Shown here piece by piece: positions 19,374-61,442 of a stretch of DNA of 64,000 nucleotides (position 1 is its first letter; the number at the start of each line of letters is the position of its first letter). The translations under genes and the position numbers were made by a program. Location: assembly GCA_946188105.1 (NCBI GenBank), contig CAMHTQ010000001.1:85026-149025 (forward strand), written 5' to 3'. This DNA is from an uncultured Alphaproteobacteria bacterium. Its GTDB lineage: Bacteria; Pseudomonadota; Alphaproteobacteria; Rs-D84. The notes beneath the pieces are model-generated. The model saw only the letters and a program-made list of their open reading frames with translations, was not told the DNA's origin and made no database searches.

Positions 19374-21176
19374 TTACTCTGCCTTTTTCTGTTTTTGTTT
19401 TGCTTTAAACTGCATATCGTACAGTGTTTTATAAGCACCGTTTTTATTCTTTATCAATTCTTCATGGGTTCCAGATTCAACAACTTGCCCATCATTGATA
19501 ACCAAAATATTATCTGCATTTTGAATTGTTGATAATCTGTGAGCAATAACAAACACAGTTTTATCTTTCATCAGGTTTTCAATTGCCTTTTGAACAACCG
19601 CCTCGGACTTGTTATCCAGCGCAGATGTTGCCTCGTCTAACACCAAAATTGGTGCATTTTTCAAAAATGCACGAGCAATCGCAACACGTTGCTTTTGTCC
19701 CCCAGACAATAACACACCACGTTCACCAATTTCTGAATCCAAACCATCAGGCAATGTTTTAATAACATCATCCAAACATGCCATTTTAACAGCTTTCAGT
19801 AATTCTTTTTCTGATGCCTTTTCATTACCCAACATAATGTTTTCACGTATAGTTCCGCTGAACAAGAAATTATCCTGGAACACAACACCAATATTGGCAC
19901 GCAAAGAATTTAATGTCATATCACGAACATCAACACCATCAATTAAAATTGCACCCGATGTTACATCATAAAATCTGGGCAACAAACTAACCACCGTAGA
20001 TTTACCACCACCAGAATTACCAACAAAGGCGATTGTTTCACCCTTTTTCACAGTAAAGTTAATATTTTTCAACACAGGAACATCTTTGACATATTCAAAA
20101 GAAACATCACGGTATTCAATCTTTTTGATGTTCGATTTCATTTTAACAGCACCCTTCTTTTCTGTAATTGCAGGCACCGCATCCAATATATCGAACACAC
20201 GTTCTATGGCCAAGAAAGACATCAACACAGAATTATATGTTCCACCAATCGATTTAATTGGGGTGTATAACATAATCAAAGCCGTCAAGAACGAAACAAA
20301 ACTACCCGCTGTAATAGAGCCATTTAAAATCAAATAAGATCCAAACCATATTGCCAATCCGATACCCACAGACAAAATAACATGCATAACTGGGGTCAAC
20401 CAACGTGTTCTTTTCATCATTTTCATACTTAAACTGAATGAATTATTTAACACCTTGTCAAATTTATCCCGTTGCTTTTCAGCCAAGTTATACGAGATAA
20501 TTGTTTTATTACCATTATATGTTTCATTATATTCGGTCAATAACTCAGAACTGACCTGAATACTTTTCTTAACGACATTTTTAATTTTTCTGCGAACAAC
20601 CGTCATTGGCAATAATGCAAAGAACATAATGGCCACACAAACCAATGCCAACTGCCAAGAATTATAAAACAACACCGCAATCAAAGATATTGCTGTGAAA
20701 AACTTTTGAACAAATGCCTTTACATTATTCAAAAGCCCCGCACATGCCATATCAGCATTACTGTTAAACATAAACAGAACTTCACCAGAATTTTTCTTGT
20801 TAAAGAATTCTGTTTCAAAAGTCAGCATCTTTCTATACAAATCCTTTTTCAACAGATTTGTAGTATTGGTTCCAACCCATGTATTTAAATAATCAGCAAT
20901 ATATTTCAAAACACCCTGAACCAATGTAAAACCAATAATCAATAATGGAATGTACCATGCTGTTTGCAGGTTTTTGTCTATCATAACGACATCCATGTAT
21001 GGTTTCAAAGCCAATGCAATAACCGCATCCAATGAACCAACTGGAATTGCGACCAATATCGCCAACAAACCACGCACCCAATATGGTTTTAAATATGGCC
21101 ATATACGTTTGTAATTTTTTACAAACATATTACGCAAAACTCTTTCACGTATTTCTTTACCCAATTTTTTAGCCAT
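19374..21176 (-). CDS. ABC transporter permease/ATPase, MsbA-like lipid exporter
   Basis: Six-TM N-domain; Walker A GNSGGGKST, ABC signature LSGGQKQRVAIARA, Walker B ILVLDEATSALD. Confidence 0.85.
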   Translation of the reverse strand: MAKKLGKEIRERVLRNMFVKNYKRIWPYLKPYWVRGLLAILVAIPVGSLDAVIALALKPYMDVVMIDKNLQTAWYIPLLIIGFTLVQGVLKYIADYLNTWVGTNTTNLLKKDLYRKMLTFETEFFNKKNSGEVLFMFNSNADMACAGLLNNVKAFVQKFFTAISLIAVLFYNSWQLALVCVAIMFFALLPMTVVRRKIKNVVKKSIQVSSELLTEYNETYNGNKTIISYNLAEKQRDKFDKVLNNSFSLSMKMMKRTRWLTPVMHVILSVGIGLAIWFGSYLILNGSITAGSFVSFLTALIMLYTPIKSIGGTYNSVLMSFLAIERVFDILDAVPAITEKKGAVKMKSNIKKIEYRDVSFEYVKDVPVLKNINFTVKKGETIAFVGNSGGGKSTVVSLLPRFYDVTSGAILIDGVDVRDMTLNSLRANIGVVFQDNFLFSGTIRENIMLGNEKASEKELLKAVKMACLDDVIKTLPDGLDSEIGERGVLLSGGQKQRVAIARAFLKNAPILVLDEATSALDNKSEAVVQKAIENLMKDKTVFVIAHRLSTIQNADNILVINDGQVVESGTHEELIKNKNGAYKTLYDMQFKAKQKQKKAE

Positions 21177-31040: not shown

Positions 31041-31727
31041 ATGAAAAACCAAAAACAATACATTCGTCATGTTAATGAAATGATTATTCAACCAATCGTT
31101 CAAGAGAACGACTTTTTGCGTTTGAATGTATTGAACTATGCCCGCAGCGAATTAAGAAACGAAGCAACCAGATTAAAACCTGCAAATTCTGATCCAATCG
31201 ATTTTACAAACATATATAACATGTCTGTGGCTTGGGATTATGTATTGAAACACCTGCATACAACTATTGACATCAAAGAAATTGCCCAAATAAACTCGAT
31301 TATATCTACAAATAATGATGAAGATGTTACTGGTGGAACATTTCGTTATTGTATGGCCTATGTATTGGGACAACCCGCTCCAAATCCATTACGAATTCAC
31401 GATTTATTAGATTCTGCTGTATACAGAATGAATACAACAAAAAATCAGATTCTAACCAAAGCATTTGATATACATTACGATATTGTAACAATTCAACCTT
31501 TTTCTGATTTTAATAAACGCACCGCACGTATAATTATGAATTGGTATTTACTGCAAAACAATTATACACCTGTGTTGTTTAATCACAAAAACGATAACCA
31601 GTTATACACAGAATCTTTGCGTAAACGTCTGAATGGGGATACAAAAGAATATACCGCATATATGTGTGACAGAACAATCAAAACACAGAATGCAATATTA
31701 AAGATGTTATCTCATCGCACCAGATAA
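31041..31727 (+). CDS. Fic/DOC-family protein with degenerate active-site motif
   Basis: Core ..IHYDIVTIQPFSDFNKRTARIIMNWYLL aligns with the Fic motif HPFx[DE]GNGRxxR, but reads QPFSDFNKRTAR (His->Gln, Gly->Phe). Confidence 0.6.
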   Translation: MKNQKQYIRHVNEMIIQPIVQENDFLRLNVLNYARSELRNEATRLKPANSDPIDFTNIYNMSVAWDYVLKHLHTTIDIKEIAQINSIISTNNDEDVTGGTFRYCMAYVLGQPAPNPLRIHDLLDSAVYRMNTTKNQILTKAFDIHYDIVTIQPFSDFNKRTARIIMNWYLLQNNYTPVLFNHKNDNQLYTESLRKRLNGDTKEYTAYMCDRTIKTQNAILKMLSHRTR

Positions 31728-37126: not shown

Positions 37127-37269
37127 TTTTAATCCTTTTTTCTGTTAATTCCTCGTTCCCATGGATTTAGCCAAAAACAGCGGTTTTTGGACAGAATCAA
37201 CCACGAAAACTGTGTTCTTCGCTGAAACAGCGTGCCCTGATTTTGACACAAAAATATTAAAATTGCAAG

Positions 37270-37300
37270 AAAAAAACCGCCATAAATGGCGGATTTTTTT
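37270..37300. terminator. Terminator after paralog A (end of accessory gene run)
   Basis: CCGCCA-TAAA-TGGCGG hairpin followed by ATTTTTTTAT; overlaps the stop codon. Confidence 0.65.
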
Positions 37301-37730
37301 ATCTTTGTTCTTGTTTCGCTGTCCTTAACAATTTCAAACGAAAATCTGTATTATTGCGTATCCAACGCAACGTATCACTCGCAACATGACGTGGCACCGC
37401 AAATGAATTAGAGCAAACAAAATCACCTTCTGGCACACCGTTTAATACAACACGACTCCATAAATAATTCCCTTTATCGCCAACTGGTTTACCGACCTGA
37501 TTTGATTTACCCGAAGTTTTAGATAACAATACATGTACATCTGAAATTAACATTGATTCTTCTTGAATATCATTAAAGAAATTCTGGATATCTTTTGGGA
37601 ACAATATTTCTTCACCACGATATGTTGTCGCGGGTTTTCCACCCACAAAAATCCCATTTTTATTTACCGTTATATAATCTTTATCTGAAATTTTATACAT
37701 GACATATCCCCTTTTTTGTATCACCGACAA
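37299..37730 (-). CDS. Paralog-family protein A (143 aa; 'ITVNKNGIFVGGKPATTYRG' family, Ser variant)
   Basis: N-terminal YITVNKNGIFVGGKPATTYRG; conserved His (VHVLLSKTSG) and W-S-R at the position where the paralogs have W-C-R. C-terminus ..TAKQEQR. Confidence 0.55.
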   Translation of the reverse strand: MSVIQKRGYVMYKISDKDYITVNKNGIFVGGKPATTYRGEEILFPKDIQNFFNDIQEESMLISDVHVLLSKTSGKSNQVGKPVGDKGNYLWSRVVLNGVPEGDFVCSNSFAVPRHVASDTLRWIRNNTDFRLKLLRTAKQEQR

Positions 37731-37757
37731 AATAGCAACAAATTAAACAATGTCAAT

Positions 37758-37790
37758 AAAAAACCGCCAAAATGGACGGTTTTTCTATTT
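37758..37790. terminator. Putative internal terminator between 37808 gene and paralog A
   Basis: ACCGCC-AAAATG-GACGGT imperfect hairpin followed by TTTTTCTATTT. Confidence 0.45.
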
Positions 37791-37807
37791 AGATTATATA
37801 AATTAAA

Positions 37808-38068
37808 TTATCTGCCACGATTCCATGGACACGACAAACAAAAATTTCGTGGATATGGCAAATTTTTTTCTTTTGCAGAATAATTTCTCCAAAAATTTAA
37901 ATGCACAATCGTGATTCTGCCCATACGATCTATCTGATAATCTGTATAACCCTGACTTTCAAGAAATTTCAAATAAGGACAAGTATAGCGGACATCGGTA
38001 TTATCACAATCAACCATATGAATACTGTTTGCCGCATTATGAAAATCTACATAAGGATATCCGGACAT
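37808..38068 (-). CDS. Small Cys-containing hypothetical protein (86 aa)
   Basis: ATG 38068 with AAGGAAAATAAA RBS. Sequence MSGYPYVDFHNAANSIHMVDCDNTDVRYTCPYLKF...CLSCPWNRGR; possible Cys4 site. Confidence 0.4.
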   Translation of the reverse strand: MSGYPYVDFHNAANSIHMVDCDNTDVRYTCPYLKFLESQGYTDYQIDRMGRITIVHLNFWRNYSAKEKNLPYPRNFCLSCPWNRGR

Positions 38069-38090
38069 TTTATTTTCCTTTTTTAATATT

Positions 38091-38894
38091 CTAATATAAA
38101 TGCTTAACCAACTCGTGCATACGCAAGACAACAACGTTTTTGTTTTGTGTTCCAGGATAATCACATTGTATATCGTGCACGATATCTTTTACTTTATATA
38201 TATCGTTTTTTTGATGTAATAACATCACAATAGAGCCACCTGTATTTGTATGATTTAACATTTTTATTAAAACCTTTTGAATAGCAACATAAGGTAAAAA
38301 ATCACAAATATTTGATAAATGAATAAAATCATACGATTGTTTTAGTTTTAATTTTTTAACATCAGACCAAATAAAGTCAAAAGGTTCATGTACAATTTGT
38401 TTTAATTTGGAAAACTCTTGTTGTTGTAAAGCATATTTTTGATATCTTTCAGACCGAAACCGTCCATTATCAAACAACAAATACCCATTCATTCCATCAA
38501 TATACTGTTGTACTTCGGACGATAATTTAGAAATTATATCCTGGGTATGTGCTGCATGTCTGACATTTATATTGTGCCATAAACTGTTTTGCATTTCATA
38601 ATACTGGTTCAATGTTAAATGCTGTAATGCCAGTGTTTTCAAATCCATAACTACTTTGGCATTATATGAAATATCAAAAGTCGTAATATGTTCAATGCCA
38701 TATAATTTACAAAACAACGGATGGTCACCCGATGCCGCAACAGTCAAGGCTGTCTTATACGATTTTTTTATGTATTTCATCGATTTGCGCACATCTTCAT
38801 TTGTTACAGCATACGCAGGGGAATATTTGTTAAACACCGGATACGTGCTGTATACAAGCTCTTTTGCTTCTGATATATTTGGCATTGATTTCAT
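38091..38894 (-). CDS. Putative class I SAM-methyltransferase-like protein (267 aa)
   Basis: ALTVAASGDHP...HITTFDIS (motif I/II-like), YDFIHLSNICDF, TGGSIVML. The ATG lies 4 nt after the stop of the upstream gene. Confidence 0.4.
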   Translation of the reverse strand: MKSMPNISEAKELVYSTYPVFNKYSPAYAVTNEDVRKSMKYIKKSYKTALTVAASGDHPLFCKLYGIEHITTFDISYNAKVVMDLKTLALQHLTLNQYYEMQNSLWHNINVRHAAHTQDIISKLSSEVQQYIDGMNGYLLFDNGRFRSERYQKYALQQQEFSKLKQIVHEPFDFIWSDVKKLKLKQSYDFIHLSNICDFLPYVAIQKVLIKMLNHTNTGGSIVMLLHQKNDIYKVKDIVHDIQCDYPGTQNKNVVVLRMHELVKHLY

Positions 38895-38898
38895 ATTT

Positions 38899-38948
38899 TT
38901 ATCTTTTGTTTTGTGCGTTGTTGTTTGCAGTAAACACAACAGGGTTAA
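38899..38948 (-). repeat. Conserved 3'-end repeat copy 1 (encodes ..NPVVFTANNNAQNKR*)
   Basis: ttatcttttgttttgtgcgttgttgtttgcagtaaacacaacagggttaa; ~47/50 identical to the copy at 41266-41315. Confidence 0.8.
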
Positions 38949-39405
38949 GGGTTAATGAATGCCACAATGCCGCACGGAATGCTCTGTATTGGCGGACATT
39001 CATTGCACAGTTGCGTGCACCGTAACTCGCACTATCCTCAGTCGAACCAAGATTGCCTGAGAAGACCCAAGCGCTTTCAGTTCCTTTTTTTAATGCAATA
39101 CGACACCATACGTTTACACCCTCTTCATACGATGGATAACCAACGGCATCTTCTTCTCTTGTTTTAGACGTTATTACATGAAACGCTGCGATGCTTGGAC
39201 ATTTTTCTTGCATCCATTTAAATACTTCTTTTATATATTCAATATGGTATATGTAGTATCCACGATATTTTATTGTTGGTTTTCCACCAACAAAAATACC
39301 GTCTTTGTTAATTGTGATATATTCTGTGTTCGGGAAATAAGGCATTTCTCCTAACCATTCATTTAAGTCCTTGGTCACCTGTTCTACATTTTCAAGTTCT
39401 GTCAT
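38899..39405 (-). CDS. Paralog-family protein B (168 aa) with conserved C-terminal tail ..TANNNAQNKR
   Basis: EYITINKDGIFVGGKPTIKYRG, FHVITSKTRE, VNVWCRIALKKG..AWVF. Ends in the shared tail encoded by the 38899-38948 repeat. Confidence 0.6.
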   Translation of the reverse strand: MTELENVEQVTKDLNEWLGEMPYFPNTEYITINKDGIFVGGKPTIKYRGYYIYHIEYIKEVFKWMQEKCPSIAAFHVITSKTREEDAVGYPSYEEGVNVWCRIALKKGTESAWVFSGNLGSTEDSASYGARNCAMNVRQYRAFRAALWHSLTLNPVVFTANNNAQNKR

Positions 39406-39418
39406 TTTATAAATCTCG

Positions 39419-39455
39419 TTATCTTTTGTTTTGTGTTTCGTTGTTTGCAGCGGTA
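39419..39455 (-). repeat. Conserved 3'-end repeat copy 2
   Basis: ttatcttttgttttgtgtttcgttgtttgcagcgg; same reading frame as the other copies (QNKR*). Confidence 0.75.
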
Positions 39456-39685
39456 TTTGCAACCTTTTTTAATGATTCAATATATGATACAATTTTTGTA
39501 GCCGCCTTTACGTCGCTGCTTGTGCAATCAGGCGTATAAATCAATGCTTGTTCTTTGGCTGAATAGCCTACTTTTTTACCATTGATAATATAGGTGTGGG
39601 CATCGTGGTAACATTTAGTCGCCCTTACACCACCACCCGGAACAGTGCATATATATGGCGCCCTGACAACTTCTTTTATATACAT
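39419..39685 (-). CDS. Hypothetical protein (88 aa) with conserved tail ..NNETQNKR
   Basis: RBS AAAGGAAACACA. Sequence MYIKEVVRAPYICTVPGGGVRATKCYHDAH...KKVANTAANNETQNKR. Confidence 0.45.
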   Translation of the reverse strand: MYIKEVVRAPYICTVPGGGVRATKCYHDAHTYIINGKKVGYSAKEQALIYTPDCTSSDVKAATKIVSYIESLKKVANTAANNETQNKR

Positions 39686-39697
39686 TGTGTTTCCTTT

Positions 39698-39725
39698 CTA
39701 TCTTTTGTTTTGTTGTGTTTCAGCA
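39698..39725 (-). repeat. Conserved 3'-end repeat copy 3
   Basis: ctatcttttgttttgttgtgtttcagc. Confidence 0.7.
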
Positions 39726-40216
39726 ATTTTCTTCACAACGATTTCATATCCGTCTACCTGCACTGGTTTGCCAACACATTTAGATAAATCCACGTCTTTT
39801 AATACCTTTATCAAATAATCTGGTGTCCCCAAAGCAGCAGAACGCATTTGTGCAGAAATACGAAAGCTATCCAGACTTTGATATGCACAACGACTTGCGC
39901 ATTTATCCATTGAATCACACTCACTAACAAACACCCATGGGGAAACACGTCCATTATTAAATTTTGCACGACACCATGCGTTGTAACCATGTTTTGTCGA
40001 CGGGTTACCAACCACGCCATATTCACCACGTGTTTCTGATGATAGGGCGTGCATTTCCATAATATTTGGATGCATTTTTTGTATCTCTTCAAAATGTTCC
40101 CATAAATGTTCAATCCACGCTATTTCTACCCCACGATATTTTATCGCCGGTTTCCCACCAACAAAAATGTCATCTTTATTAATTGTAATGTATTCTGTAT
40201 TTGGAATATCTGTCAT
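39698..40216 (-). CDS. Paralog-family protein C (172 aa) with tail ..ETQQNKR
   Basis: MTDIPNTEYITINKDDIFVGGKPAIKYRG, MHALSSETRGEYGVVGNPS, NAWCRAKFNNGRVSPWVF. Confidence 0.6.
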   Translation of the reverse strand: MTDIPNTEYITINKDDIFVGGKPAIKYRGVEIAWIEHLWEHFEEIQKMHPNIMEMHALSSETRGEYGVVGNPSTKHGYNAWCRAKFNNGRVSPWVFVSECDSMDKCASRCAYQSLDSFRISAQMRSAALGTPDYLIKVLKDVDLSKCVGKPVQVDGYEIVVKKIAETQQNKR

Positions 40217-40230
40217 TTCAGTGTCCTTTT

Positions 40231-40245
40231 TTATCTTGTGTGGCT
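40231..40245 (-). repeat. Degenerate 3'-end repeat copy (ttatcttgtgtggct)
   Basis: Shares the ttatctt.tgt core with the other copies but encodes HTR* instead of NKR*. Confidence 0.45.
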
Positions 40246-40581
40246 GTGCATACGGGACAATCTTTCAATTTCTTTCAAATCATGTGCTGTTTTCTGTAAC
40301 AAAAATTCGTTTTGCTTTTCTATATCACGAAAGGCCGCATCATTTGCAGGGACATACATCGCCGTATCCTGCGGAATAACAAGGATATTTTGCCTGACAG
40401 ATTCCACTTTTGGCTGCGCTTTATCTTTTATTTTTGGTTTATCTTGCTTGCTGTCAATACTGGCCAACCCAACAATAATTGCGACTGCACCAACAAAAGA
40501 AAGACCTTCGACAAAACAACCGCCGGCATTTCCAAAAGTACTGTGCAAAGGACTGTGCTGTTCAATACCCAATTCAGACAT
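40231..40581 (-). CDS. Small protein with Flp/type-IVb-pilin-like hydrophobic N-terminal segment (116 aa); variant tail ..MHSHTR
   Basis: ATG 40581 with strong SD AAAGGTGG. Segment ..FGNAGGCFVEGLSFVGAVAIIVGLA resembles the Flp prepilin G/xxxxEYGLI..hydrophobic region, with one residue missing. Confidence 0.4.
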   Translation of the reverse strand: MSELGIEQHSPLHSTFGNAGGCFVEGLSFVGAVAIIVGLASIDSKQDKPKIKDKAQPKVESVRQNILVIPQDTAMYVPANDAAFRDIEKQNEFLLQKTAHDLKEIERLSRMHSHTR

Positions 40582-40593
40582 TTTTACCACCTT

Positions 40594-40615
40594 TTATCTT
40601 TTGTTTTGTGCGACA
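40594..40615 (-). repeat. Conserved 3'-end repeat copy 4
   Basis: ttatcttttgttttgtgcgaca. Confidence 0.7.
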
Positions 40616-41253
40616 TTGTCCCTTAACATCGCGTTTTTAATAGAATTAAATTTGAATTTTTCTTGTGCAATATGTAAATCACGCTTTTCAACACTCGCGG
40701 CATCATTATCATCATTCAACACTTTATAATAATTATAATTGTTAAAACCTCTGAGTTTGCGCACATTGATAGTATCCCCGGCATTCAGATATTGAAAACG
40801 ATTGTCTAATGTATTTGTAAAAAATATTCTTTCCTGACCGTCTTTAACATCTTTGACAACGATTTTATTTTTCCCAGGCACCACCACAACATTTTTCTTG
40901 TATTCAACAAAATCACATCCGGCAAACAATAAACACGCAATAATTGGATATAACACATTTAATTTCAGATTTGATTTTTTTTCGGCATTATTAACCGGAA
41001 TATTTAATTTTTTACACGTAAAATTTACCATATCTTTAACTGATTTAAGATTGAATTTAACTTCTTCGAACTCATCTGTATCAAACACAATATTTAATCT
41101 TCTTTCTATGTCCATGCCGGTTTCAGCTATATCCAAAGAATCCATTCCCAAATCCTCTTCCAGCCGGCTGTTTTCTGTGGTTTCTGGAGAATCAGCCAAT
41201 TTATGCTCATTTACAATTTCAATAACTTTGTGCAAAACTTCATTTCTTGTCAT
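40594..41253 (-). CDS. Acyl-carrier-protein domain fused in frame to a lipoprotein-like module; tail ..DNVAQNKR
   Basis: Residues 1-78 contain ..NSRLEEDLGMDSLDIAETGMDIERRLNIVFDTDEFEE (ACP DSL phosphopantetheine-attachment motif). Then KKSNLKLNVLYPIIACLLFAGC (signal-peptide/lipobox-like) and ~120 more aa, with no stop between. Confidence 0.55.
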   Translation of the reverse strand: MTRNEVLHKVIEIVNEHKLADSPETTENSRLEEDLGMDSLDIAETGMDIERRLNIVFDTDEFEEVKFNLKSVKDMVNFTCKKLNIPVNNAEKKSNLKLNVLYPIIACLLFAGCDFVEYKKNVVVVPGKNKIVVKDVKDGQERIFFTNTLDNRFQYLNAGDTINVRKLRGFNNYNYYKVLNDDNDAASVEKRDLHIAQEKFKFNSIKNAMLRDNVAQNKR

Positions 41254-41265
41254 TTTATGAACCTT

Positions 41266-41315
41266 TTATCTTTTGTTTTGTGCGTTGTTGTTTGCAGCAA
41301 CCACAACAGGGTTAA
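41266..41315 (-). repeat. Conserved 3'-end repeat copy 5
   Basis: ttatcttttgttttgtgcgttgttgtttgcagcaaccacaacagggttaa. Confidence 0.8.
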
Positions 41316-41739
41316 TTGGTTTTTGTGGTGTTTTTTCTTTATCAACCGCATCAAACACCGCAGAACGGAAGTCCGCGTTGTGGCGAACGGCGTCCGCGCA
41401 GAGATCCGCACAGCGGTACGTACAATTGGCCGCCGAACTGGACGTGTAGGCGAACACCCACGCCCCAAGGCGTCCATCACTCAAAAGCACACGACACCAT
41501 ACGTTTGGGCCACTCTTACAAGATGGATTGCCAGTCACGGCATACTCACCCCTTGTTGCCGACGACAACACATGCAATTCTGCAACATTTTTATTTAATC
41601 TTTGAATACCCGAAAAATAGTCACGCACAGCAACCAAGCAATAAATATGCTTGCCACGATATGTTGTCGCAGGTTTTCCCCCAACAAAAATCCCGTCTTT
41701 GTTAATTGTAATATATTCTGTATTTGGTATATCTGTCAT
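41266..41739 (-). CDS. Paralog-family protein D (157 aa) with tail ..VAANNNAQNKR
   Basis: MTDIPNTEYITINKDGIFVGGKPATTYRG, LHVLSSATRGEYAVTGNPS, NVWCRVLLSDGRLGAWVF. ATG 41739 with AAAAGGG RBS. Confidence 0.6.
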   Translation of the reverse strand: MTDIPNTEYITINKDGIFVGGKPATTYRGKHIYCLVAVRDYFSGIQRLNKNVAELHVLSSATRGEYAVTGNPSCKSGPNVWCRVLLSDGRLGAWVFAYTSSSAANCTYRCADLCADAVRHNADFRSAVFDAVDKEKTPQKPINPVVVAANNNAQNKR

Positions 41740-41897
41740 TTTATTACCCTTTTCAATCGCTATACCCACAGTCAAAATACCAAAAAAAAACGGCAATATC
41801 AAGTTTTTTTGACAAAAAAGTATTTTGCCATCCCGCAGAACTAATCACCCACAAAATTTCAGAATTTTGCGGGGCCCGATATCGCCCCTTTGCACAT

Positions 41898-41928
41898 AAA
41901 AAAACACCCTTTCGGGTGTTTTTTATTC
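41898..41928. terminator. Bidirectional terminator
   Basis: ACACCC-TTTC-GGGTGT hairpin with A7/T6 runs. Confidence 0.65.
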
Positions 41929-48687: not shown

Positions 48688-49185
48688 ATGAAGACAACAT
48701 TTCCATACAATTTGAAAAAAGGATTTATTATTTTGGGCTTGGTCGCATTACCATTTGCATTTAGCGGCTGTGAAAAAGAAAACGTCGAACCAAACCGTGG
48801 TAACCGAAACAGCGGCAACACCGAAAACCCCGACACACCCGACATTCCAAAACACAACGTGGAATTAACATATGGTAAGTCCCCATCAACCCAATGGCAA
48901 AATATCGATCTGGATACAATTTCAAAATATAATAACGACCCAGCCGTTGATACAATATTTATGATTCCAGAGGCATACAACCAATTTAGTGGCCTTTCAA
49001 CCAGTGCATTACAAACACGGGTTACAAAATTACGCGAACGTCACAACATTAATCCGAACAAGGTTTTAGGCAAAGGAGATTTGCAATTGGCATCCGATGC
49101 CGTAGAAAACAACCAGGAAATTGTGCGTTTCTTTGCCGACACGTTGAAATATAACGTATTATATACTGGTGTAAAATCCAGATAA
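48688..49185 (+). CDS. Lipoprotein, hypothetical (165 aa)
   Basis: MKTTFPYNLKKGFIILGLVALPFAFSGC lipobox; RBS AAAGGAG. Confidence 0.55.
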   Translation: MKTTFPYNLKKGFIILGLVALPFAFSGCEKENVEPNRGNRNSGNTENPDTPDIPKHNVELTYGKSPSTQWQNIDLDTISKYNNDPAVDTIFMIPEAYNQFSGLSTSALQTRVTKLRERHNINPNKVLGKGDLQLASDAVENNQEIVRFFADTLKYNVLYTGVKSR

Positions 49186-61127: not shown

Positions 61128-61442
61128 ATGCCAACAACTGAAAAAGCAATGTGTTTAACCATAACCCCAGCCAACGATATAATTATATTAGAATACATAT
61201 CGCCTGTTCCACAACGTATGCCGGCTGATTGGGATAAATTTATCCGCAGACAACGTGTTGCAGGGAAACCAAAAACTTTGATGGTCAGTAAATCCGAAAA
61301 ATATTATAACGATGTTTTGAACTTTCAACATGGTGATAAATTTTTAATTGAAAACAATCGTGTCGTATTAGGTCCAACCCCAGAAATAGAAATTCCATTT
61401 GGCGAATATGACATCAGCCGTTTCAAAGCACCAACCAGATAA
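61128..61442 (+). CDS. Hypothetical protein (104 aa)
   Basis: ATG immediately follows the rimI stop (TAAATG). Confidence 0.45.
   Translation: MPTTEKAMCLTITPANDIIILEYISPVPQRMPADWDKFIRRQRVAGKPKTLMVSKSEKYYNDVLNFQHGDKFLIENNRVVLGPTPEIEIPFGEYDISRFKAPTR

Follow-up and report, generated by a model that had tools for sequence, protein, structure and literature searches.

The window analysed here is a stretch of 64,000 nucleotides from an uncultured gut bacterium of the alphaproteobacterial lineage Rs-D84 (assembly GCA_946188105.1, contig CAMHTQ010000001.1, positions 85,026 to 149,025 of the forward strand). Its minus strand carries, between 41739 and 37808, an operon of eight tightly packed genes, five of which end in the same short peptide, ..QNKR, although several of their products are unrelated (C-terminal peptides are written up to their stop codon). 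We call the DNA behind this peptide the tail element. The evidence from sequence comparison points to a nucleotide sequence, DNA or RNA, as the conserved unit, because codons of the tail are frozen, third codon positions are not relaxed, the similarity continues past the stop codon and, in at least four cases in related genomes, the element is used in another reading frame. On balance we favour, with some reserve, a junction module: an unstructured A-rich ribosome-loading region followed by a stop codon and a Shine-Dalgarno (SD) sequence, which would double as a handle for homologous recombination. The order Rs-D84 comprises uncultured bacteria with genomes below 1 Mb that are possibly partner-dependent (PMC12306168).

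The gene run is an array of units named cassettes below. The paralogs D, C, B and A belong to one family, F1, and share 35–51% identity. The features of the locus are the following (aa, amino acids; ACP, acyl carrier protein; TM, transmembrane; SAM, S-adenosylmethionine).

41774-41802, minus strand: candidate sigma-70-type promoter of the run, TTGATA-17-TATTTT with a TG extension, from the promoter scan
41266-41739, minus strand: cassette 1, F1 paralog D, 157 aa, ending ..VVAANNNAQNKR
41266-41315, minus strand: 50-nt tail repeat closing the D gene, matched in direct orientation by 38899-38948 at 48/50 positions
41254-41265, minus strand: junction between D and the ACP-lipoprotein gene, AAGGTTCATAAA (SD plus spacer), from the D stop to the next start codon
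40594-41253, minus strand: cassette 2, fusion of an ACP-like domain with a lipoprotein/TM body, 219 aa, ending ..DNVAQNKR
40231-40581, minus strand: cassette 3, small TM protein, 116 aa, ending ..MHSHTR; the element is degenerate here (CACAAGATAA)
39698-40216, minus strand: cassette 4, F1 paralog C, 172 aa, ending ..KIAETQQNKR, stop codon TAG
39419-39685, minus strand: cassette 5, 88-aa protein, ending ..AANNETQNKR
38899-39405, minus strand: cassette 6, F1 paralog B, 168 aa, ending ..TANNNAQNKR
38091-38894, minus strand: cassette 7, MT, a DUF3419-like protein with SAM-methyltransferase fold, 267 aa (PF11899, E=7.7e-10)
38136-38150, minus strand: degenerate copy of the element inside MT, ACACAAAACAAAAAC, read TQNKN; its stop codon is lost and 17 more codons follow
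37808-38068, minus strand: cassette 8, MSGYP, 86 aa (MSGYPYVDF..CPWNRGR), last in the run, ending AGATAA
37755-37783, minus strand: terminator-like hairpin with T-run closing the operon, accgtccattttggcggtttttt, read from the sequence
37299-37700, minus strand: F1 paralog A, 133 aa, ending ..TAKQEQR (degenerate element CAAGAACAAAGATAA)

Consecutive genes are separated by 12, 12, 14, 12, 13 and 4 nt, and then by 22 nt between MT and MSGYP. An earlier note on this DNA had counted nine genes spaced by 4–14 nt; there are eight, with spacings of 4–22 nt, and paralog A does lie beyond a terminator as that note described. The candidate run promoter sits between the terminator of the outer-membrane protein (OMP) gene (41899-41924) and the start codon of D. 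The hairpin that closes the operon was not listed by the terminator scan because its stem is imperfect. Paralog A has its own promoter-like site (37756-37729) and its own terminator (37292-37277). The ACP-like domain matches PF00550 with E=9.5e-6, while NCBIfam ACP matches stay below cutoff. The TM protein had been labelled pilin-like, for which neither Pfam nor NCBIfam gives support. MSGYP belongs to a family, F4, whose usual position is the end of a run.

The 3' ends of D, the ACP-lipoprotein, C, the 88-aa protein and B have the sequence CAAAACAAAAGATAA/G, read ..QNKR. The exact 15-mer CAAAACAAAAGATAA occurs four times in the window, plus once with one mismatch, and all five copies are confined to the array locus and to the array strand. 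Degenerate copies are present in the TM protein gene, within MT and at the end of paralog A. Taken generally, the tail peptide ..[AE][TQ][QK]Q[NI]KR is the in-frame reading of the last 15–30 nt of the gene, which lie about −16 to −35 from the next start codon. The 88-aa gene matches D at 30 of its last 33 nt, their proteins being unrelated. The ORF (open reading frame) listing, the sequence and the 15-mer count thus agree that the shared C-terminal repeat is real, in frame and locus-specific. The number of carriers in the window, given before as six, comes down to the five with ..QNKR, since the TM protein has only ..CACAAGATAA. The near-identity of the D and B tails is confirmed, at 48/50 positions (96% of 52 nt in the repeat search) instead of the 47/50 first reported.

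Whether the peptide or the nucleotide sequence is conserved was approached through codons, frames and the extent of the similarity. The Arg codon of the tail is AGA in every copy, 15 out of 15 F1 genes included, and the invariant Arg28 of these F1 genes is CGT, CGA or CGC; in the window as a whole, AGA accounts for 17% of Arg codons and CGT for 54%. The tail Gln is always CAA. Position −9, the third position of an Asn/Ile codon, is C in 69% and T in 24% of the copies; AAT is the major Asn codon (69%), yet the tails prefer AAC. In a conservation profile drawn from 45 non-redundant junctions, positions −14 to 0 are conserved at 70–100% and third codon positions are not relaxed. The similarity does not end at the stop codon but takes in the SD and spacer, which are non-coding, and AAGGTTCGYAAYCATG is found before five unrelated genes in L014, one of the related loci described below (designated L001, L007 and so on). 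Within L014 the runs differ in their variants: run b has AAT at each of its four QNKR junctions, and run a has ATC at three junctions in succession. The N/I variant of the tail, a radical amino acid change, is common. Reading in frame +1 gives ..QKIKG[KS] in family F8 (L011, L020) and in a 96-aa gene of L012, and reading in frame +2 gives ..QHTK in L074; an F1 subfamily ending ..TKVKG[KI] is attributed to a 1-nt deletion in which the stop codon is lost. Some members of tail-carrying families have no tail altogether and persist in several genomes. Across relatives the tails decay to a bare terminal Arg (HSHTR, GNQR, NLR, HNR, DKQR, ERIR). It had been concluded earlier that the tail is selected at protein level as a sorting signal. 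That step is not supported: the codons are frozen, the third positions conserved and other frames read, the N/I change is common, members without tail exist, and no secretion, shell or protease partner is consistently linked to the arrays.

The frame distribution was surveyed on 47 distinct copies of the core of the element in 695 kb of related loci. All 47 are on the array strand and nearly all lie at gene ends. An open frame of 40 codons or more precedes 43 copies, of which 39 read in frame 0 and three in frame +1, one being probably a chance internal match; the other four, with fewer than 40 open codons upstream, are three ORF-less remnants and the frame +2 case of L074. The bias towards one frame, first presented as a probability of (1/3)^5, therefore holds in the larger sample; that statistic overstates the independence of the copies, because D, C and B are paralogs and D and B share a conversion tract.

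Sequence features at the junctions are consistent with a function in translation initiation. The mean predicted minimum free energy over positions −35 to +20 is −1.8 kcal/mol for the run junctions, −4.9 for housekeeping starts and −7.9 for random windows. Housekeeping initiation regions of this genome resemble ..AAAACAAAAGG-N7-ATG, and A-rich sequence upstream of start codons promotes initiation (PMC7043885). A tightly coupled gene follows 36 of the 39 full tails, as compared to 32% of all genes. The tail element would thereby enhance translation of the downstream gene. Other functions of the junction were considered. The 16S rRNA 3' end typical of alphaproteobacteria would pair only with AAAGG(A), so that AGATAA probably does not extend the pairing to the anti-SD. 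A promoter inside the tail (a weak TTGCTG-N17/18-GATAAA in tails of the IAETQQNKR type) was rejected because transcription starting there leaves no room for an SD; the promoter scan lists none at a junction. Fusion of adjacent ORFs by frameshift or readthrough was likewise discarded: spacers of 12, 13 and 14 nt place the next ORF in varying frames, and in the other two frames a stop codon comes no later than the next ATG.

Similar arrays were found at syntenic loci adjoining rpsB-tsf in Rs-D84/Candidatus Enterousia-like genomes, and their position, between an outer-membrane gene cluster and rpsB-tsf, is a conserved hot spot. In L007, 11 out of 12 consecutive genes end ..[TK]Q[NI]KR, with an AAGG SD and 12–14 nt to the next ATG in each case; in L009/L014 about 10 of 13 consecutive genes carry the tail, invariably with the SD and 12–14 nt behind it, and two arrays flank rpsB-tsf. 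About 15–20 protein families are represented across arrays and their order differs between genomes. The lipoprotein body of the ACP-lipoprotein stands alone in L007 and L035, and orthologs of the TM protein in L012 and L007 differ in their tail (HSHTR, IARQR). Four tandem DUF3419-like paralogs occupy the same rpsB hot spot in L024 (8347-11725), of which the internal ones end ..ER[IV]R (..ATAAGATAA or GTAAGATAA) followed by an SD. Nearly all of 120 DUF3419-like homologs (P0121-P0240) end ..ER[VI]R. Paralog A is kept in L013 and L021. The spacer type of the junction between D and the ACP-lipoprotein is seen again in L007 and L018, and the SD-spacer AAAGGAAACACA is always 5' of the 88-aa gene, its L007 ortholog included. 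The first genes of runs have an SD-spacer in front of them and no tail. Since the SD-spacer moves with the downstream gene and run-first genes lack an upstream tail, the cassette is delimited as [SD-spacer-ATG..body..tail-TAA].

Comparison between copies and between genomes documents exchange at the tails. D and B are 40–60% identical through the 3' half of the gene and 96% identical in the last 50 nt, a difference that identifies a conversion tract and bears out the gene conversion proposed before. In L013, D is joined directly to MT through the B-to-MT junction, which is the product expected, from the sequences, of a crossover between the 50-nt repeats 41315-41266 and 38948-38899 with removal of five cassettes. 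MT itself is 98.3% identical in nucleotides to its L013 counterpart, while rpsB is 89% identical and rpsB, OMP, A and MSGYP together range over 84–90%. The 96–100% identical block extends from window position 38927, within the tail repeat, to about 38128 (L013 9130-9940); its edges fall at tail copies, the right one adjoining the degenerate copy inside MT. Such a block flanked by less conserved neighbours indicates a recent horizontal replacement of one cassette. Chimeric genes are also found, as in L014, where an N-terminus of the 88-aa type is joined to a C-terminus of a 180-aa type, and ORF-less tail remnants stand in front of downstream genes. The earlier suggestion, given only as an alternative, that the shared 3' sequence serves as a recombination handle for cassette exchange is the one that fits these comparative data best (L013 joint, edges of the MT block). 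General RecA-type recombination, and not a dedicated recombinase, probably acts on the element.

Based on these results, the locus would be an array of gene cassettes without promoters of their own, which varies between strains and occupies a conserved hot spot, each cassette being laid out as [AAGG SD - 8-9 nt - ATG ... body ... A-rich tail - AGA - TAA]. The shared peptide would be the in-frame translation of tail nucleotides that lie inside the 30S footprint of the next cistron. Two roles are proposed for this segment, and both would be exerted by the nucleotide sequence. It may provide an unstructured A-rich region for ribosome loading and translational coupling, with the stop codon directly before the SD, so that all cistrons are translated. 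It may also provide a short direct repeat at which homologous recombination or gene conversion duplicates, deletes, swaps or horizontally replaces cassettes, and the same exchange could keep the copies alike and in frame.

Several observations weigh against the junction module. The bias for frame 0 extends across families (about 7–8 against 3–4, P about 0.02 under random frames), and a preference for one frame is not obviously required by an element acting purely at RNA level; it may result from inheritance through homologous exchange together with a possible benefit of stopping just before the SD. The Thr codon of the tails takes ACA, ACC, ACG or ACT and the Asn codon AAC or AAT, as fits a constraint on the peptide. 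Truncated F1 genes ending ..KLRN (L018 2440-2510 and L035 7501-7566) are followed by an untranslated tail remnant of 64–69 nt in which the upstream half has suffered insertions and deletions, while AGATAAAAGGTTCATAAAATG is intact and the AGATAAAAGG..ATG part is kept; such decay may mean that the upstream part of the tail is kept partly by being translated. The terminal Arg is AGA in 57% of the uncoupled Arg-ending genes of the clade, so common that the argument from AGA, though strong, is not peculiar to the arrays and is weaker than it seemed at first sight. The figure is 86% for coupled Arg-ending genes, but the corresponding idea that AGA is used only when a gene follows, although suggestive, is confounded by family composition and was not relied upon. 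A few run-terminal genes with terminators behind them carry tails as well, and repeats of 20–50 nt are short substrates for RecA. As a separate observation, about 22% of the called genes of the clade end in Arg, encoded by AGA in 57–86% as compared to 17% of internal Arg codons, a bias of the last sense codon across the clade; Arg-ending genes of the window include those at 31041-31727, 48688-49185 and 61128-61442.

The part of this evidence that concerns frames and codons would suit a C-terminal peptide tag selected at protein level, for secretion or translocation, compartment loading, adaptor binding or degradation, by which the products of the array would be marked as cargo for a single machine, with DNA identity as a by-product of conversion, an explanation that we hold to be unlikely without dismissing it. 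The strong frame-0 bias across about 7–8 unrelated families, the synonymous variation of Thr and Asn codons and the decay of untranslated remnants in L018 and L035 speak for it. So do the disordered, exposed C-terminus of the AlphaFold2 (AF2) model of D, the plausibility of effectors in reduced, possibly partner-dependent organisms (PMC12306168) and the presence of F1-like domains in giant surface-type proteins. It does not account for the frozen Arg, Gln and Lys codons and unrelaxed third positions, the continuation into the non-coding spacer, the persistence in several genomes of other-frame readings and tail-less members, or the frequent radical N-to-I change. The terminal Arg is the only residue common to all tails across relatives, and N-terminal targeting is already provided in some carriers, which are lipoproteins or TM proteins. 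Known C-terminal targeting peptides (tails of type IV secretion system (T4SS) substrates, encapsulin peptides, ssrA-type degrons) resemble the tails in being short, disordered, basic and shared within one locus; the tails differ by lacking a GSL-type motif and an LAA/MAA end, and no cognate machinery was found nearby. The VirB/D4 T4SS signal has several positive residues in the last ~20 aa (e.g., R-x7-R-x-R-x-R). The tails carry only the terminal K-R, and the I/N variants add no charge. No gene for a T4SS, type I secretion accessory, encapsulin or dedicated protease is consistently adjacent: T4SS domains are absent among the window proteins scanned (64 kb), shell or capsid-fold genes are absent next to the arrays in the window, L007, L009 and L024, and, over the same window proteins and flanks, secretion, shell and integrase genes near the arrays were not found. 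Capsid genes occur only in a prophage-like flank of L011, and an S8 peptidase, considered as a consistent partner, adjoins arrays only in L007 and L009. In its broader form, in which the tail is a recognition tag by which an export, packaging or quality-control system of Rs-D84 symbionts marks the products of a hypervariable array of effector cassettes, and incoming genes gain, without integrase, both a tag and a ribosome-binding site for their downstream neighbour, the proposal appears improbable to us. A resemblance to the ssrA tag was rejected: the tmRNA tag of the clade, AANDNVRLAMAA, matches AANNNAQNKR over too short a stretch and the tails have no MAA end. This tag is encoded by a permuted tmRNA (L045 7070-7408, minus strand); the similarity, probably coincidental, lies between its first five residues, codons included, and the beginning of the tails of D, B and the 88-aa protein.

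We also regard as improbable that the tails have no present function and are relics of F1 3' ends, spread to neighbours by illegitimate and then homologous recombination and held alike solely by continuing gene conversion inside arrays, as neutral concerted evolution. F1 is the dominant family and a likely donor, and the conversion tracts, chimeras and run-specific variants of L014 (AAT in run b, ATC in run a) are compatible with this scenario; however, the element is kept over lineages in which synonymous sites are otherwise near saturation, the coupled gene behind 36/39 full tails and the exceptionally unstructured junction RNA would be left without reason, and AGATAAAAGG..ATG is retained where the upstream ORF is gone. 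An integron-like system, with a site-specific recombinase acting at the junction sequence, is highly unlikely, although the arrays share with integron arrays co-oriented, promoterless, unrelated small genes behind one common promoter, with content that varies between genomes. An attC site is an imperfect inverted repeat of 57–141 bp with R''/L''-L'/R' boxes, located at the cassette 3' end. The junctions consist here of 12–14 nt plus a coding tail and have no such palindrome: no attC-type inverted repeat was found at the junctions (4–22 nt), the repeat search giving direct repeats at gene ends alone; the repeat of the arrays is coding. Phage_integrase has no match flanking the arrays in L007, L009 and L024 or among the 39 window proteins scanned, which leaves no integrase within 8–10 kb of these arrays, and the exchange boundaries resemble homologous tracts. 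The sole integrase seen belongs to L001, where the context differs and the neighbouring F1 gene is single-copy. Least credible of all, to the point of being negligible, is a generic dispersed intergenic repeat (repetitive extragenic palindromic (REP), miniature inverted-repeat transposable element (MITE) or RPE-like) or an A-rich compositional artefact. The GC content is about 38%, A-richness is a general trait of initiation regions and gene ends, and AGA and AAA are frequent terminal codons. Yet the exact 15-mer is limited to the array locus within 64 kb, 47/47 copies are on the array strand, nearly all at gene ends, identities of 30–50 nt link unrelated genes, and the element is non-palindromic. 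Mutagenesis of the diversity-generating retroelement type was rejected as no reverse transcriptase and no template repeat were seen.

The junction module is best compared with systems that reuse short sequences between variable genes. PeSLs (promoter-early stem-loops) are short conserved regulatory motifs flanking small non-essential ORFans in the hyperplastic regions of T4-type phages (PMC2839356, PMC4122927). Here as there, recombination between short motifs inserts, deletes and replaces modules, leading to strain-specific gene content, and breakpoints of the PeSL type at repeats are found in the D-MT joint of L013 and in the 96–100% block bounded by tail copies. PeSLs differ in being an intergenic promoter plus terminator in phage, whereas the present element is a translated tail with stop codon and SD in a bacterial chromosome; the scan gave no promoter-like or terminator-like site at array junctions. 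Regions of translational coupling and A-rich standby regions (PMC7043885, PMC5934652) share with the junctions a stop codon a few nt before the SD and an A-rich segment at −16 to −35 that is predicted to be structure-free. Ordinary operon junctions are not identical in sequence between unrelated genes, while here a sequence of 15–33 nt is reused and homogenised. Orphan toxin/immunity arrays of the contact-dependent growth inhibition (CDI) and Rhs systems are likewise built of variable modules in tandem, which can be swapped by recombination at short conserved coding stretches. In CDI/Rhs modules the homology, with VENN or PxxxxDPxGL motifs, lies 5' of the C-terminal toxin domains; neither these motifs nor toxin domains were found in the array proteins.

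Family F1 has about 200 close homologs and 651 profile matches, all unannotated, from rumen and gut metagenomes and from metagenome-assembled genomes labelled Alphaproteobacteria or Candidatus Enterousia. The AF2 model of D is confident (pLDDT, the per-residue confidence score, 89.7), with the tail residues 145–157 disordered (below 50), and this confident predicted fold has no match in PDB or BFVD. No viral relatives of the cassette genes were found, viral contigs included, and a phage origin of the array was rejected. The F1 core (residues ~58–135) is repeated in giant surface-type proteins, and F1 is also found fused behind an ACP (PP-binding) domain, much as the ACP-lipoprotein of the window is an ACP fusion; the proteins listed for these two arrangements are P0370 (4750 aa), P0344 and P0310, and P0266 and P0283. 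The giant protein P0370 combines the F1 core with Listeria-Bacteroides (Flg_new) repeats and with an Endonuclease I domain at its C-terminus. F1 genes that are single or form short arrays lie in defence or mobile contexts in L001 (1-16474) and L011 (1-7000 and 13800-16570), with an OLD-like nuclease, an SLFN-like helicase, an integrase, a type I restriction-modification system with a SIR2-like gene and phage capsid genes.

The rest of the 64-kb window is ordinary core chromosome (GroEL, S1, trigger factor, RF, PFOR, tyrS, tsf, rpsB, PolA, Lon, Obg). An ABC exporter is encoded at 19374-21176. A Fic/DOC-domain protein (PF02661, E=9e-14) is encoded at 31041-31727 on the plus strand, between M23 peptidase and S41 protease genes. 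Matches to Rfam are all sub-threshold and all on the terminator at 37250-37390. A gene for tRNA-Arg(TCT), the decoder of AGA, lies just downstream of tyrS near the arrays of several relatives (L009 10494-10570, L021 18296-18372, L024 15631-15707, and also L050 and L066); none was found anywhere in the 64-kb window.

If the element is the junction module that we favour, one short sequence would serve as the 3' end of a gene, its stop codon, the ribosome-loading site of the next gene and the homology for swapping cassettes within as well as between lineages, and a bacterium without integron could keep a plug-and-play cassette array. Peptides common to unrelated proteins would then have to be annotated with caution, as they can be the translated shadow of a nucleotide signal. 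Should the tail be a real tag after all, the array would be a cargo catalogue of an unknown pathway, and F1, the DUF3419-like methyltransferases and the ACP fusions would be good targets in the search for partner interactions. Genomes of less than 1 Mb spend several kilobases next to rpsB-tsf on a fast-changing array of orphan genes.

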